In this document: one piece after another, positions 19,696 to 26,467 of the stretch
Layout of the letters: every line of letters starts with the position of its first letter
Position numbering within the stretch: the stretch's first letter is position 1
Made by a program: the position numbers and the translations under genes
Notes under the pieces: model-generated
Told to the model about the DNA's origin: nothing
What the model saw: only the letters and a program-made list of their open reading frames with translations
The model's database searches: none
From: an uncultured Gammaproteobacteria bacterium
Lineage (GTDB): Bacteria; Pseudomonadota; Gammaproteobacteria; Ga0077536
Assembly: GCA_963976285.1 (NCBI GenBank)
Contig: CAXBJY010000008.1
Span: 14,414-78,413 of the forward strand
Reading direction: 5' to 3'
DNA length: 64,000 nucleotides

Positions 19696-20532
19696 GTGCA
19701 CCGGCTTTCCGATCGGAACGCCAGGCACACTGATCTTGCGCGAGCGACGGCACGTACCTTTCAGGTGACAACAGCAAACGAACAAAACCGCGCCGCGGTG
19801 ATCCAGGGCGCGAGCCGTGGCATCGGTCTGGCGCTCGTGCGCGCGCTGCTTGCCGATCCGCACAACGACCGCATCGTGGCGAGCTGCCGCGATCCGGCCG
19901 CTGCATCGGCATTGCGCGACCTGCAACGTGCAAATCCGCGGCGTCTCGACATCGTCGCGCTCGACGTCACCCGCGAAGACTCCGTGCGCGCGGCGGCGGC
20001 GCGCACGGCGGAACGCGTCGATACGGTGTCGTTACTGATCAATTGCGCCGGCCTACTGCACGGCGATCACTTCGAACCGGAGCGCCGGCTGGCCGATGTT
20101 GACCCGGAACACCTGCAGCGGCTGTTTGCGGTCAATGCGTTCGGCCCGCTGCTCGTCGCAAAACACTTCGCTGCGCTGTTCCCGCGCCAGCAGCGCGCCG
20201 TGCTCGCGAACGTGTCCGCGCGGGTCGGCAGCATTGGCGATAATGCGCTCGGTGGCTGGTACGGCTACCGCGGGTCGAAAGCCGCGCAAAATATGTTCAC
20301 GCGCAACCTCGCGATCGAACTGAAGCGCAGGCATCGCGGTATCATTTGCGTCGCGCTGCACCCCGGCACCGTCGACACGGATCTGTCGCAACCGTTCCAG
20401 CGCGGGGTGCCGGCGCACAAACTGTTCCCGGCGGCGCGCGCCGCGGCGCAGTTGCTCGCCGTGATCGACGGCCTGGGTCCGTCCGCCAACGGCGGTTTCT
20501 ACGCCTGGGATGGATCGGAAATCGAATGGTAA
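19696..20532 (+). CDS. SDR family oxidoreductase (CsgA/C-factor-like short-chain dehydrogenase); start uncertain (track GTG 19696; alternative GTG 19765)
   Basis: …AAVIQGASRGIGLALVRALL (TGxxxGxG), …YGYRGSKAAQNMFTRNLAIEL (YxxxK catalytic pair). Confidence 0.7.
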   Translation: MHRLSDRNARHTDLARATARTFQVTTANEQNRAAVIQGASRGIGLALVRALLADPHNDRIVASCRDPAAASALRDLQRANPRRLDIVALDVTREDSVRAAAARTAERVDTVSLLINCAGLLHGDHFEPERRLADVDPEHLQRLFAVNAFGPLLVAKHFAALFPRQQRAVLANVSARVGSIGDNALGGWYGYRGSKAAQNMFTRNLAIELKRRHRGIICVALHPGTVDTDLSQPFQRGVPAHKLFPAARAAAQLLAVIDGLGPSANGGFYAWDGSEIEW

Positions 20533-20637
20533 GCCGATCCGATACGCAGCGCCGCCGACGCGCCGCGACCTTGCAATGAACCGCGAACCCGGGCGCCGGC
20601 TGCGCCGGCCCGTGCGCAATCTCAAAAGGAGTTTCAA

Positions 20638-21090
20638 GTGAATACAGCAGATGTTGCGACAACCAGCGCCTGGCCGCTCGCGCCGATCGAAACCTACCTC
20701 GCCGAGACCGCGCTGCCGTGCCGCCTGGCCTGCGTCACCGACGCCGGTTTTCCGCATGTCACGTCGTTGTGGTACCTGTATCGCGACGGCGAACTGCTGT
20801 TCAGCGTGCAACGCAGCGCCATGGTTTCCACCTGGCTCGCGGAAAATCCGCAATGCGGCTTTGAAGTTGCCGTCAACGATCCCCCGTACCGCGGCGTGCG
20901 CGGGCGCGGCACCGCGACCGTTGCGCCGGCCACGGACGACACCGTGTTACGCAGCCTGATCGATCGCTTTCTCGGCGATGACAACCCGGGCCTCGCGCGC
21001 TGGTTGCTGTCGCGCACGGCGACGGAGTTGACGCTGCGGGTTCGCCCGCAATGGCTCACGGCGTGGGATTACGGCAAGCGCATGGCGTGA
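20638..21090 (+). CDS. pyridoxamine 5'-phosphate oxidase family protein (FMN-binding split barrel)
   Basis: GTG start with AAAGGA SD; 150 aa; …PHVTSLWYLYRDGELLFSV… pattern of PNPOx-like/general stress protein 26 family. Confidence 0.7.
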   Translation: MNTADVATTSAWPLAPIETYLAETALPCRLACVTDAGFPHVTSLWYLYRDGELLFSVQRSAMVSTWLAENPQCGFEVAVNDPPYRGVRGRGTATVAPATDDTVLRSLIDRFLGDDNPGLARWLLSRTATELTLRVRPQWLTAWDYGKRMA

Positions 21091-21106: not shown

Positions 21107-22102
21107 TCACGACTGCCGGCTCTGCAGTTTGGCCGGCAACGCGATGCCCTCGTACTCGGCGACTTCGATCAGGGCGTGTTCGAAGATCTCGCGCGCCGCG
21201 CTCGTCGTGCGGCGCAGCTTCGCGTGCAACACGGCGTCCTCGTCGTTGCGGTTCTCACACTCCGCGCTGTACGCCTCGAATTGAGTCAGGGTGCGCACGA
21301 TGTCCACGAGATGATGCGGGCATTCGCATTGCACCGCCGGCGCCGCGTTCGCCAGCATTTCCAGTAGCGCATCGTCGAGAATCCGCGGCACCACGGTATC
21401 GGGCAAGCCGCGGTCGGGCGCCGCGCGCGGCGGCAGGGGCCGCGCGAGTTCCCGCCCGAGCTGGTAGCTGTCGGCCGGCGAGCGCAACGTGACGATCCCG
21501 TCGCGCGCGAGGTCGGCGAGCACGTCGGCAGGCGCGAAGCCGTAAATCACGACCGTCCGCTTCGCCGCCGTCTGCGCATGCAGTTGCCGGATCTGTCGCG
21601 CGCGGTTGCGCAGCAATGCGGCGACGTCGATCACGAGCGCGTCGGGCAGCGTGCGCAACGCTTCGGCTTCGAATTCGGGCCAGCTGCGACAGTGCGCTCT
21701 CACGGTCATGTCATCGAACGACGGATGGCCGGCCGGCAGGAGCGATTCGCGAGACTCACTGAACACAACGGCATCGGCGATCCCGGGCGACGCGGCGGCG
21801 CCGTCGGTGTGCTGGTCCTCGTGATGCAACTGCGTCAGTTCATCGAGTTCCGCCCGGCTCAGATTCGCGACCGAACTGATCGCGTGACCGCTGCCAATGA
21901 GCCGTTTGATTAGCTTTAACCGCTCGACATCGTCACTGCTGTACAAGCGCGCCGCGCTGCCGGTGCGCTGCGGCGAGACGACCTGGTAACGGCGCTCCCA
22001 CGCCCGCAGCGTGTCCACCGGGATCTGCGTAATGCGCGATACAGCGCCGATTTTGAACCGGGAACCGTCGTCCGGGTTTTCGTTCTCCGTGTCTTTGACC
22101 AT
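21107..22102 (-). CDS. MerR family transcriptional regulator with ~250-aa C-terminal domain of unknown function
   Basis: N-terminal HTH FKIGAVSRITQIPVDTLRAWERRYQVVSPQRTGSAARLYSSDDVERLKLIKRL = MerR-type. Divergent from the HiPIP operon promoter. Confidence 0.75.
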   Translation of the reverse strand: MVKDTENENPDDGSRFKIGAVSRITQIPVDTLRAWERRYQVVSPQRTGSAARLYSSDDVERLKLIKRLIGSGHAISSVANLSRAELDELTQLHHEDQHTDGAAASPGIADAVVFSESRESLLPAGHPSFDDMTVRAHCRSWPEFEAEALRTLPDALVIDVAALLRNRARQIRQLHAQTAAKRTVVIYGFAPADVLADLARDGIVTLRSPADSYQLGRELARPLPPRAAPDRGLPDTVVPRILDDALLEMLANAAPAVQCECPHHLVDIVRTLTQFEAYSAECENRNDEDAVLHAKLRRTTSAAREIFEHALIEVAEYEGIALPAKLQSRQS

Positions 22103-22221: not shown

Positions 22222-22280
22222 TTGAACAGTGCAAAGCATTGACATACCGTTCGAGCTTGTCTATATTTTGCACTGTTCAT
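22222..22280. promoter_or_regulatory. inverted pair of a 15-nt motif (TTGAACAGTGCAAAG at 22222-22236; TTTTGCACTGTTCAT at 22266-22280) bracketing the promoter: candidate operator
   Basis: Reverse complement of the second copy is ATGAACAGTGCAAAA. Copy 1 abuts the -35; copy 2 overlaps the -10 and predicted TSS. The same motif recurs at 25785-25829. Confidence 0.45.
22239..22267 (+). promoter_or_regulatory. consensus sigma70-type promoter TTGACA-17 bp-TATATT driving the small-ORF/HiPIP operon
   Basis: TTGACA at 22239-22244, 17-nt spacer, TATATT at 22262-22267, in a locally AT-rich intergenic region about 37 nt upstream of the ATG at 22304. Confidence 0.55.
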
Positions 22281-22303: not shown

Positions 22304-22405
22304 ATGAAAATCGCTCTGCACACGACCCGCCTCAACATTGTCAGCCTCGTCGCGATCGCGCCATTAGGCGTGCTTTCGGCGTTCGCCATCGTCGGCACCC
22401 TGTAA
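22304..22405 (+). CDS. 33-aa hydrophobic small ORF (MKIALHTTRLNIVSLVAIAPLGVLSAFAIVGTL); putative membrane mini-protein or leader peptide
   Basis: AAGGA SD 7 nt upstream of ATG, between promoter and HiPIP gene. Below the ORF-track size cutoff. Predicted single TM helix. Confidence 0.35.
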   Translation: MKIALHTTRLNIVSLVAIAPLGVLSAFAIVGTL

Positions 22406-22438
22406 ACCGATCAAGAAATTTTCCCGGAGGAACCCTCA

Positions 22439-22813
22439 ATGATAGACAAAACCCGTGCAACCGCATCGGCGACGACGCTTCGGTCGCGCCGCGACGCGTT
22501 GAAGAAAACAGCCGCCCTGGGTGCCGGACTCGTGCTCGGCGCCGGCCTCGCGACGCACCGCCGCGCCGCGGCGACGGAGCTGCCGCAACTCGCCGAAGAC
22601 CATCCGCAGGCGATCGCGCTCGGCTATCGCCACGACGCGGCAACCGTCGACCCGGTGAAATATCCGACCGCCGATGCGGCGTCGAAGAACTGCGCGAACT
22701 GCCAGTTGTTCCAGGCCGACGGCGATTCCGCCTGGGGCGGGTGTCCACTGTTCGCCGGCAAGGCGGTTAACGCGCAGGGCTGGTGCACCGCCTGGGTCAA
22801 GCGGGTCGGCTAG
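22439..22813 (+). CDS. high-potential iron-sulfur protein (HiPIP) with twin-arginine (Tat) signal peptide
   Basis: SRRDALKKTAALGAGLVLGAGLA (Tat motif); mature domain with CANCQLF…GGCPLF…GWCTAW, the four-Cys HiPIP [4Fe-4S] signature. Confidence 0.85.
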   Translation: MIDKTRATASATTLRSRRDALKKTAALGAGLVLGAGLATHRRAAATELPQLAEDHPQAIALGYRHDAATVDPVKYPTADAASKNCANCQLFQADGDSAWGGCPLFAGKAVNAQGWCTAWVKRVG

Positions 22814-22822
22814 GAGAGCAAC

Positions 22823-22984
22823 ATGGAACTGATTACGCCTGTTCGTGATTGCGGCGGTGCCGCGTGGCAATGGCTGCAGCGGCTCGCCGGCCCGCATGAA
22901 CGGATCTGTCGCCATCGGGAGTGGACGAAGTTCGGCACGTACTCGGAGCAGATGCTGTGTCGTCTGCTCGATGACCTGTGCTGA
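22823..22984 (+). CDS. 53-aa Cys-rich hypothetical protein
   Basis: MELITPVRDCGGAAWQWLQRLAGPHERICRHREWTKFGTYSEQMLCRLLDDLC. GGAGAG SD immediately after the HiPIP stop codon (TAG-GAGAGCAAC-ATG). Four Cys. Below ORF-track cutoff. Confidence 0.45.
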   Translation: MELITPVRDCGGAAWQWLQRLAGPHERICRHREWTKFGTYSEQMLCRLLDDLC

Positions 22985-23016
22985 TCTGCGTCGCGATCGC
23001 AACCGTACCCCCCGTA

Positions 23017-23916
23017 ATGAACCCATCACCCCGCACGGCTGCACCTCCGGTCACCGTCTACTTCGACGGCGACTGTCCGGTGTGCAGCCGGGAGATCGGC
23101 TGGTACCGGCGCTGCCGCGGGGCGGAGTCGGTCGCCTGGGTCGACATCCACGGCACTGCGTTCGCACCGGCTTGCGGCCTCACCCGCGACGCCGCGCTCG
23201 CCGAACTGCATGTGCGCGGGTCGGATGGTTCAGTCGTTACCGGCGTCGATGCGTTCGTCGAGTTGTGGCGCGAGTTGCCCGGCTGGCGCTGGCTCGCGCG
23301 CCTCGCGGCGCGCCGCGGGGTCAACCGGGTGCTCAAACGGGGCTACGCCGTCTTCCTGTGGTGGCGCCAGCGTGGCGACGCTACGGCGCCGGCATTTACC
23401 GCGCTTCCGACTCCGGTGCAGCGTGACTTGCGTTCGAATCACGCCGGTGAACTCGGCGCCGTGTGGATCTATCGCGGCATCCTGACGGCCAGCCGCGATG
23501 CGCAACTGCGGCACTTCGCCCGACGTCACCTGGCAACCGAGCAAACCCATCTCGCGCTGATGCGCGCACGTGTGCCGTTGCGCCGGCGCAGCGTCTTCGG
23601 GCCGATCTGGATCCTCGCCGGCTACGTCACGGGACTGCTCCCGGCGCTTGCCGGCAAGCACGCGGTCTACGCGACCGTCGCGGCGGTCGAGGCGTTCGTC
23701 GATGAACACTACCGGCAGCAGATCGAATACCTCGACAAGCAATCCGGTTGCGCCGATTTGCGCGCGCTGATCAACCGTTGTCACGCCGACGAGATCAACC
23801 ATCGCGACGAAGCGCGCCGCGCAGCGGGCGCGCCTGCCGGGCGGTGGCTCGACGCGTGGATCAAGCTCGTCACAAACACCTCACGCATCGCGGTGCGGAT
23901 CGCGCGCCGCGCGTAA
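23017..23916 (+). CDS. coq7: fusion protein: N-terminal DCC-family thiol-disulfide oxidoreductase domain (DUF393) + C-terminal Coq7-type di-iron demethoxyubiquinone hydroxylase domain
   Basis: Met 14 of track ORF 22978..23916 (alternative GTG 22978 overlapping the upstream stop). VYFDGDCPVCSREIGWYRR…WVDI = DCC signature. C-terminal half has NHAGELGAVWIYRG, ATEQTHLALM, AAVEAFVDEHYRQQ and DEINHRDEA, i.e. the E…ExxH…E…ExxH ligand set of Coq7/CLK-1. Confidence 0.75.
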   Translation: MNPSPRTAAPPVTVYFDGDCPVCSREIGWYRRCRGAESVAWVDIHGTAFAPACGLTRDAALAELHVRGSDGSVVTGVDAFVELWRELPGWRWLARLAARRGVNRVLKRGYAVFLWWRQRGDATAPAFTALPTPVQRDLRSNHAGELGAVWIYRGILTASRDAQLRHFARRHLATEQTHLALMRARVPLRRRSVFGPIWILAGYVTGLLPALAGKHAVYATVAAVEAFVDEHYRQQIEYLDKQSGCADLRALINRCHADEINHRDEARRAAGAPAGRWLDAWIKLVTNTSRIAVRIARRA

Positions 23917-23933
23917 ACCAGCAGGAGCAGCAC

Positions 23934-24968
23934 ATGGCCAGTGTAGCGATAGCAGGCGCCGGCATCGCCGGTATCAGCGCCGCCCGGGCGCTGCGGCAGG
24001 ATGGATACAGGATCACCCTGTTCGACCGCGGGCGACGTCTCGGTGGACGCGCCTGCTCGCGACGGACGGGTGGCGGTTACGATCACGGCGCGCAGTACTT
24101 CACCGTCTCCGACCCGGCATTCGCACGCGCACTCGCGCCGCACATGCGCAGCGGCGCGGTCGCGCCGTGGCACGGACGCGTCGTGCGCAGCGTCGGCGGG
24201 CAACTGCACGAGTTCGACGCGCGCCGCTATGTCGGGGTCCCGGGTATGGGTCGCCTCGCCGAAGTGCTGGCGCAAGACTGCGAAGTTTTGACCGACACCC
24301 GAGTCACCGTGGCTGAGCAAGGCGCACGCGGCTGGTCGCTCGTCGACGCGGACGGTTCGGAACTCGGCGAATACGATGTGCTGCTGCTCGCGATGCCGCC
24401 GGAACAGGCGAGCGCGCTGACACCGCGCGATTGCCCGTTGCGCGAGACCTTGCGCGCCTGTCGCTCGCAACCCGCGTGGGCCGCGCTGCTTCAATTCGCC
24501 GAGCGCCTGCCGCTCGATTTTGACGGCGCGACGTTCGATCGGCTCGACCTTGCCTGGGCGGCGCGCGACTCGGGCAAACCGGGCCGTGAACCGGGTGAAC
24601 GCTGGGTCGTGCATGCCGCCGCGGAATGGTCGCGGGAGCGGTTCGGGGCCGCACCCGAGCGGGTGGCGGCAGAACTCGCCAGCGCATTGTTCACCGCCAC
24701 CGCTCTCGATCCACGCGAGACGACAGCGATGTCCGCGCACCGCTGGGGCTTCGCGCGGGTCGGGAACGGACCGGCTTGTGGCGCGTTATGGGACGAACAC
24801 CTGCGCCTCGGGATTTGCGGCGACTGGTGTGTCAGCCCGCGTATCGAAGGCGCCTGGCTGAGCGGGGTCGAAGCCGCCGCGCAAATCCGCGCAAGCGTCG
24901 GTCGGCCACGACGGCGAACCGCGAAAACCGCCGCCGTCACGCCTGGCGACGAGGCAGCGCTGACATGA
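23934..24968 (+). CDS. NAD(P)/FAD-dependent oxidoreductase (amine-oxidase/renalase-like fold)
   Basis: Met 63 of track ORF 23748..24968 with AGGAG SD. MASVAIAGAGIAGISAARALRQDGYRITLFDRGRRLGGR (dinucleotide-binding motif). Confidence 0.7.
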   Translation: MASVAIAGAGIAGISAARALRQDGYRITLFDRGRRLGGRACSRRTGGGYDHGAQYFTVSDPAFARALAPHMRSGAVAPWHGRVVRSVGGQLHEFDARRYVGVPGMGRLAEVLAQDCEVLTDTRVTVAEQGARGWSLVDADGSELGEYDVLLLAMPPEQASALTPRDCPLRETLRACRSQPAWAALLQFAERLPLDFDGATFDRLDLAWAARDSGKPGREPGERWVVHAAAEWSRERFGAAPERVAAELASALFTATALDPRETTAMSAHRWGFARVGNGPACGALWDEHLRLGICGDWCVSPRIEGAWLSGVEAAAQIRASVGRPRRRTAKTAAVTPGDEAALT

Positions 24969-25759
24969 GCAAGGCCGACACGAAACCGTTCTCCGCCAGC
25001 GTCGATATGAACGAAGTGGCGTACTACGCGCAGCGCGCGCACACGTGGTGGGACGAACACGGCCCGTTCTGGCCGCTGCACCGACTGAACGCGCTGCGCG
25101 TCGACTACCTGAAGCGCGAACTCGCGACCGCGTTCGATCGCAACCCCGATTCGCCACAACCGCTCGCGGATCTCGAGGTACTCGACGTCGGCTGCGGTGG
25201 CGGCCTGCTTGCCGAAGCGATGGCGGCCCTCGGTGCGCGCGTGCACGGTATCGACGTCGTCGAGGGCAATATCCTCACGGCGCGCCATCATGCCCGCTCC
25301 CGGCCGTACCGCATCACTTATGACATAACGACGATCGAGGAACTCGCGCGCGGGACGCAACGCTACGATGTCGTGTTGACGCTCGAAGTGGTCGAGCACG
25401 TGGCGGACCTGGCGGGCTTCATGGCCGCCTGCACGCGGGTCGTGAAACCCGGCGGTATCCTCGCCGTCGCCACGATCAACCGCACGTGGCGGTCGTGGCT
25501 GTTCGCGATCGTGGGCGCGGAATATGTCCTGCGCTGGCTCCCGCGCGGGACGCATCAATGGCGCAAATTCGTGCGCCCCCGGTTCCTGCGGCAATTACTC
25601 GACGCACACGGGTTCGAGGTGTTCGCCGCGCGCGGCGTGCGCATCAATCCACTGAACCGGCGGTTTTCGACCACGAGTGATCTCAGCGTGAACTACATGC
25701 TGCTCGCCACCCGCACGAACGCAGCGGTTTCCCCGATCGCAACCGGCACAACACAGTGA
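24965..25759 (+). CDS. ubiG: ubiquinone biosynthesis O-methyltransferase UbiG (3-demethylubiquinone 3-O-methyltransferase)
   Basis: Met 114 of track ORF 24626..25759; ATGA overlap with the upstream gene. …LEVLDVGCGGGLLAEAMAALGARVHGIDVVE… (SAM-binding motif I), DVVLTLEVVEHVADL, VKPGGILAVATINRT. Confidence 0.8.
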   Translation: MSKADTKPFSASVDMNEVAYYAQRAHTWWDEHGPFWPLHRLNALRVDYLKRELATAFDRNPDSPQPLADLEVLDVGCGGGLLAEAMAALGARVHGIDVVEGNILTARHHARSRPYRITYDITTIEELARGTQRYDVVLTLEVVEHVADLAGFMAACTRVVKPGGILAVATINRTWRSWLFAIVGAEYVLRWLPRGTHQWRKFVRPRFLRQLLDAHGFEVFAARGVRINPLNRRFSTTSDLSVNYMLLATRTNAAVSPIATGTTQ

Positions 25760-25784: not shown

Positions 25785-25829
25785 TTGAACAGTGCAAATA
25801 TTGTTCACACGATTTGAACAGTGTTGCAA
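25785..25829. promoter_or_regulatory. second occurrence of the TTGAACAGTG(C)AAA motif (two direct copies) upstream of the fasciclin gene
   Basis: TTGAACAGTGCAAAT (25785-25799) and TTGAACAGTGTTGCAA (25814-25829), with TGAACA/TGTTCA inverted half-sites in between. In the ubiG-fasciclin intergenic region. Confidence 0.4.
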
Positions 25830-25900
25830 CGATAAACCGAACCGGCCAATGCCGGCCCGGTACGCCACCTGGTCCTTAATGAATGGAGTTTGCGAGTCTG

Positions 25901-26416
25901 ATGAAACTGAAAACCCTGATCACCACCGCGTTCCTCGCCGCCGCCACCGTGACGAGCGCCCACGCGGAAAACCATGGTCACCATCACATGGCGACCCCGG
26001 CGCAGCAGAACATCGTTGAAATTGCCGCCACGAACGACAGCTTCAAGACGCTTACCGCCGCGGTCACCGCCGCCGGGCTTGCCGACACGCTGCAGGGCGC
26101 GGGACCGTTTACGGTCTTCGCCCCGACCGACGCGGCGTTTGCCGCACTGCCGGCGGGCACGCTCGAGAACTTGTTGAAGCCTGAGAACAAGCAGCAGCTC
26201 GCCGCGATCCTCACCTACCACGTCGTGCCGGGTGCCGTCATGGCACAAGACGTCGTCGGCCTCAGTGAAGCGGCGACCGTCCACGGCAACAGTCTTGCCA
26301 TCAGTGTGATCGACGGTGCCGTCGTGATCGACGACGCGCGGGTCGTGTCGACGGACATCAAGGCATCGAACGGGGTCATTCACGTGATTGACAAAGTCAT
26401 GCTGCCGAAATCCTGA
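25901..26416 (+). CDS. fasciclin (FAS1) domain-containing secreted protein
   Basis: Met 7 of track ORF 25883..26416. [22 protein letters not shown] signal peptide; [15 protein letters not shown]…TYHVVPG…[13 protein letters not shown] (FAS1 H1/H2 boxes). Confidence 0.8.
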
Positions 26417-26438: not shown

Positions 26439-26467
26439 GGGCCGGCCCGTTCGCCGGCCCTTTTTTT
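26439..26467 (+). terminator. rho-independent terminator after the fasciclin gene
   Basis: GGGCCGGC-CCGTTC-GCCGGCCC stem-loop followed by TTTTTTT (26461-26467). Confidence 0.7.

Follow-up and report, generated by a model that had tools for sequence, protein, structure and literature searches.

The window (the whole 64-kb stretch of DNA analysed here) contains six genes transcribed from the same strand (22304-25759) behind a single near-consensus promoter: orf33, a Tat-exported HiPIP, orf53, a DCC::Coq7 fusion, a renalase homolog and UbiG (Table 1). The promoter, TTGACA-17-TATATT (22239-22267), matches the consensus at 11 of 12 positions, in agreement with an earlier note on this DNA, and no other promoter-like site was present across 7.7 kb. 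The five genes named in that note, from the HiPIP to UbiG, were all found in place, including the ATGA overlap between the renalase stop and the UbiG start. However, the operon does not begin at the HiPIP gene, as had been assumed, but one gene earlier, at orf33. The five-gene order, for which recurrence in other genomes had been of interest, is retained in the window's own clade only; elsewhere the fusion lies in a mosaic of the same families and photolyase-family genes.

Table 1. Features of the operon and its surroundings (positions in the window)
Feature	Position	Strand	Evidence or remark
SDR and PNPOx-like genes beside the regulator	19696..21090 (SDR 19696-20532; PNPOx-like 20638-21090)	+	Pfam
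MerR-family regulator, 331 aa, divergently transcribed	21107..22102	-	probable operon repressor
Promoter and operator region	22223..22279	+	half-sites and hexamers conserved in L001, L086, L087, L089
Operator half-site TGAACAGTGCAAA	22223-22235	+	first element, ahead of -35
-35 TTGACA	22239-22244	+	17-bp spacer to -10
-10 TATATT	22262-22267	+	hexamer conserved in L001, L086, L087, L089
Inverted half-site TTTGCACTGTTCA	22267-22279	+	closes bracket around promoter
orf33, 33-aa hydrophobic membrane peptide MKIALHTTRLNIVSLVAIAPLGVLSAFAIVGTL	22304..22405	+	first operon gene; no family
Tat-exported HiPIP, 124 aa, periplasmic	22439..22813	+	PF01355 E 3.8e-23; TIGR01409 TAT signal
orf53, 53-aa Cys protein	22823..22984	+	core ICRHREW[TS]KFGxY[ST]ExxxCRL[LV]DDLC
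DCC1-like (thioredoxin-fold, CPxC)::COQ7 (di-iron hydroxylase) fusion	22978..23916	+	PF04134 + PF03232
Renalase-type FAD oxidoreductase, 344 aa	23934..24968	+	PDB 4zcc/3kkj, E ~4e-59, full length
UbiG-type O-methyltransferase, 264 aa	24965..25759	+	TIGR01983, 263 bits vs cut-off 103
Second operator region, between UbiG and fasciclin genes	25786..25827	+	exact TGAACAGTGCAAA copy 25786-25798, then partial repeat TGAACAGTG
Secreted fasciclin-domain protein, His-rich N-terminus, likely start 25901	25883..26416	+	PF02469 E 7e-41
Terminator-like hairpin after fasciclin gene	26439-26460		

The fusion is 312 aa long when read from the GTG at 22978, or 299 aa from the ATG at 23017, as in its homologs, and matches both PF04134 (E 1e-22) and PF03232 (E 5e-39). 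It is not an assembly or frameshift artefact, a concern raised previously, as the same fusion is encoded in at least 584 species, mostly Burkholderiales. Across 59 fusion sequences, residues D17, G18, C20, P21 and C23 of the DCC domain were invariant. The same was true of all six di-iron ligands (E145, E175, H178, E225, E259, and H262), the loss of which would have spoken against a Coq7-type enzyme. With human and bacterial COQ7/Clk-1 the fusion shares the full-length Pfam match, these ligands, the E-x6-Y motifs and the pairing with UbiG, which catalyses the following step, and it adopts the four-helix di-iron fold of human COQ7 (7ssp; TM 0.87, with a sequence match at E 3.6e-22). However, the Coq7 domain scored only 60 bits against the NCBIfam equivalog for canonical bacterial Coq7 (NF033656), for which a canonical call requires 180 bits or more. 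As this is far below the cut-off, the fusion is, by sequence, a divergent, uncharacterised Coq7 subfamily. It further differs from canonical Coq7 in the additional N-terminal domain of ~130 aa, in the dedicated 53-aa Cys protein preceding it and in its position behind a putative repressor-type operator, which would make it other than constitutive. The added domain has the DxxCxxC signature opening helix 1 and the beta-alpha-beta...beta-beta-alpha fold of the DCC family (DUF393; e.g., Arabidopsis DCC1), but is here covalently joined to a di-iron hydroxylase. Bacterial DUF393 genes that stand alone have other neighbors, namely a UbiB-family kinase gene or glutathione peroxidase and TspO genes.

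UbiG methylates the Coq7 product. The late-ubiquinone hydroxylase/methylase pairing proposed earlier gained support from the close proximity of UbiG to the fusion in independent lineages. UbiG follows the fusion directly in L050 and L064, is separated from it by one renalase gene in the window clade and in L095, and lies ~4.7 kb away in L019. This recurrent proximity is consistent with a ubiquinone precursor being first hydroxylated and then O-methylated. Betaproteobacteria normally have UbiH, UbiI and Coq7 (PMC10597321). From family membership and recurrent adjacency, we infer that the fusion is a stress-induced paralog of the di-iron demethoxyubiquinone C6-hydroxylase.

Directly upstream lies orf53, the end of which runs past one possible start codon (GTG) of the fusion gene. 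Five diverged genomes share its C-terminal 26 residues without a single difference, and the third codon position carries most of its variation (over 40 codons, 5/9/21 columns vary at positions 1/2/3), which identifies it as a real gene. The earlier description of a 53-aa four-Cys ORF therefore stands as regards the gene, but only three of the four Cys are conserved. Its relatives comprise only 3 cluster representatives among 1.84 billion. As orf53 directly precedes the DCC gene in loci where the HiPIP is absent (L093/L095 and L094), it is probably an accessory partner of the fusion and not of the HiPIP. At the start of the operon, orf33 is preceded by an AAGGA Shine-Dalgarno sequence and was called as a gene in L001, L086, L087, L089, L090 and L095 (32 aa in L095). 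Its variable columns by true codon position were 13/9/28 of 33, and no Pfam match was found at E<=10.

A conserved 13-bp inverted repeat flanks the promoter on both sides, and a copy is also present upstream of the fasciclin gene, at a position conserved in L001, L086, L087 and L089. The half-sites and hexamers around the promoter are kept in five genomes (these four and the window); the promoter spacer drifts. The operon is real and probably repressor-controlled, and pairs a thioredoxin-fused Coq7 with the last-step methylase. The divergently transcribed regulator combines a CarH/LitR-type HTH, with CarH/LitR as closest PDB relatives, a receiver-like alpha/beta domain and a C-terminal helical domain carrying a CxCPxH...C...H motif (C259, C261, H264, C282, and H293 invariant). 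No B12-binding or other chromophore domain was detected in domain searches. Three regulator homologs carry the JGI name "light-induced transcriptional regulator," and full-length CECPxH homologs in B. anthina, Caballeronia and Ralstonia lie in clusters with photolyase, DASH cryptochrome, photoactive yellow protein, folE, cfa and sigma-factor genes. The B. anthina cluster additionally contains renalase-like and fasciclin genes. The MerR/LitR-like regulator, its putative operator, orf33, the tie between orf53 and the fusion and the link to photolyase/cryptochrome clusters had all been overlooked in the earlier note.

Photolyase-family genes also lie beside the fusion in six species (L015, L019, L020, L067, L077, and L079; tblastn and gene maps), and a further one was identified by Pfam in L082. 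The fasciclin protein probably belongs to the same regulon as the operon; fasciclin genes are found near the fusion in L017, L019, L067, L079 and L095, and at 51% identity in the B. anthina photolyase cluster. The SDR and PNPOx-like genes are possible members. Both are syntenic in L001 and L087, a PNPOx-like gene lies within the operon in L095, and an SDR gene adjoins UbiG in L019 and MerR homologs in Caballeronia, Ralstonia and B. anthina. In the window, no operator was detected ahead of either gene.

These features resemble the LitR/CarH family, especially Burkholderia class III LitR (Sumi et al. 2018), which PMC9758184 describes as a B12-independent, light-responsive MerR regulator with an absorption spectrum that reportedly changes in light. 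Shared features are the CarH/LitR-type HTH, apparent B12 independence, the repressor-like operator geometry spanning -35 and -10, and the photolyase/cryptochrome/folE/cfa/sigma-factor clusters around the Burkholderia, Caballeronia and Ralstonia homologs. However, the window regulator has receiver-like and Cys/His helical domains instead of a B12-binding or four-helix-bundle Pfam domain, and the Coq7 fusion, UbiG and HiPIP are not found among the LitR targets described in the literature, as far as it was accessible. The Pseudomonas class II LitR regulon (PplR/PmlR), which comprises phrB, an SDR, an FAD-dependent oxidoreductase, ufaM, cryB and folE (PMC9758184), likewise has a MerR-type repressor encoded divergently to a light-induced operon, and SDR, FAD-oxidoreductase and photolyase/cryptochrome genes as members. 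A similar arrangement is seen in L096, where a UbiG homolog (60% identity) forms a fasciclin-UbiG operon with a MerR+B12-binding_2 regulator alongside. In contrast, the sensor domain and operator sequence in the window are different, furan-fatty-acid and folate genes are absent there, and quinone-biosynthesis genes are not reported for the class II regulon.

The explanation that we favor, with moderate confidence, is that a LitR-like repressor governs a light or photo-oxidative stress regulon in which the final two steps of ubiquinone synthesis are carried out by the fusion and UbiG. This reading is based on the genome comparison, i.e., on regulator homologs in photolyase/cryptochrome clusters and photolyase-family genes beside the fusion. 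The B12-independent regulator would bind the TGAACAGTGCAAA/TTTGCACTGTTCA repeat bracketing the -35 and -10, as well as the third copy upstream of the fasciclin gene, and block transcription until released by a signal, most likely blue/near-UV light or photo-oxidative stress resulting from illumination. Derepression would then yield a single transcript (orf33-HiPIP-orf53-DCC::Coq7-renalase-UbiG), with the fusion performing the hydroxylation and UbiG the O-methylation of its product. More speculatively, the CPxC domain and orf53, which always lies directly upstream of the fusion and is translationally coupled to it, could maintain the di-iron site or the substrate in a reduced state or, alternatively, gate activity through thiol redox state, and orf33 could be the membrane anchor of the assembly. 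The HiPIP, renalase (NAD(P)H-isomer repair) and fasciclin would represent co-regulated stress or respiratory-chain functions, not direct electron donors of Coq7. Against a light signal, any marker gene was found in only 23 of the 81 fusion loci (none of seven marker families in 58/81), no photolyase is encoded in the 64-kb window and the regulator has no detected chromophore domain.

Indeed, a redox or O2 sensor would fit the regulator equally well, given its invariant motif of three Cys and two His and the neighborhoods of distant MerR homologs, which lie beside cytochrome bd (cydABDC) and MsrA genes in L091 and globin, hemerythrin and rhodanese genes in L092. Second succinate dehydrogenase operons adjoin the Ralstonia and Caballeronia homologs, and the undetected chromophore domain points the same way. 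The same enzymes might thus answer to thiol, redox or O2 stress, which the regulator would sense by means of a disulfide switch, a bound metal or an Fe-S cluster, and adapt respiratory carriers and the quinone pool when conditions turn oxidative or micro-oxic. We consider this alternative possible but on the unlikely side, as it leaves aside the photolyase, DASH cryptochrome, photoactive yellow protein and folE genes around the Burkholderiaceae homologs, the reported light-dependent spectrum of class III LitR (PMC9758184) and the photolyase-family genes abutting the fusion in six species.

Human COQ7 takes up reducing equivalents from NADH, which acts directly through the quinone substrate. 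Renalase oxidises dihydro-NAD(P) isomers, and its electrons go to O2 and not to a protein. Both points bear on the proposal in the earlier note of a self-contained quinone maturation unit with its own electron-transfer partners. Spelled out as a chain, electrons would pass from NAD(P)H via the flavoprotein and the DCC dithiol (possibly via orf53) to the di-iron center. Such a chain would be consistent with the invariant CPxC, with the translational coupling of orf53 and with gene order: the renalase-like gene directly neighbors the fusion in the window clade, L095, L015 and L048, lies directly upstream of it in L046 and forms a renalase-HiPIP-fusion series in L061, L078 and L082. As this adjacency is so frequent (8 of 81 other species and two clades), the two proteins may be directly coupled in function. 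Nevertheless, the proposal appears doubtful. The flavoprotein is homologous over its full length to bacterial (Pseudomonas) renalase, from which it differs in being embedded in an operon with quinone enzymes. The photolyase cluster of B. anthina includes a homolog (35% identity, E 1e-49) but lacks Coq7; such a flavoprotein is missing from the vicinity of the fusion in at least 70 of the 81 loci; and an NADH-bound human structure (7sss) is in line with direct use of NADH. Likewise, in 9 of 81 other species the gene immediately preceding the fusion encodes a HiPIP. All of these HiPIPs bear an RR signal and are therefore periplasmic. The HiPIP is missing from the otherwise identical operon of L095 and from ~88% of fusion loci. 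It is best read as a facultative, co-regulated member of the module rather than an established electron donor, which favors the caveat, already voiced in the earlier note, of a shared regulon.

A role outside biosynthesis, in which the Coq7-like domain would either act on a different substrate or, in the manner of the di-iron AOX/PTOX enzymes, serve as a quinol:O2 oxidase "safety valve" draining excess electrons under light stress, would suit the divergent sequence, the appearance of AOX among weak fold matches, the stress context and the respiratory components nearby. It seems very unlikely, as COQ7 itself is a far better match in sequence and fold (E 3.6e-22 and TM 0.87) than AOX (E>0.2), and the recurrent UbiG pairing points to biosynthesis. 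Least probable of all is an ordinary housekeeping coq7-ubiG locus with chance neighbors, which would agree with the equivalog-level UbiG score and with the lack of a second coq7 or ubiG in the 64-kb window, but not with the low canonical Coq7 score, the conserved putative operator and adjoining dedicated regulator, the recurrence of the same families around the fusion in unrelated genomes or the LitR-type regulator beside the UbiG homolog of L096. If the reading of a light or photo-oxidative stress regulon is true, the role of the fusion and UbiG would be to replenish or rebuild the ubiquinone pool under conditions that damage either the quinone or the housekeeping pathway.

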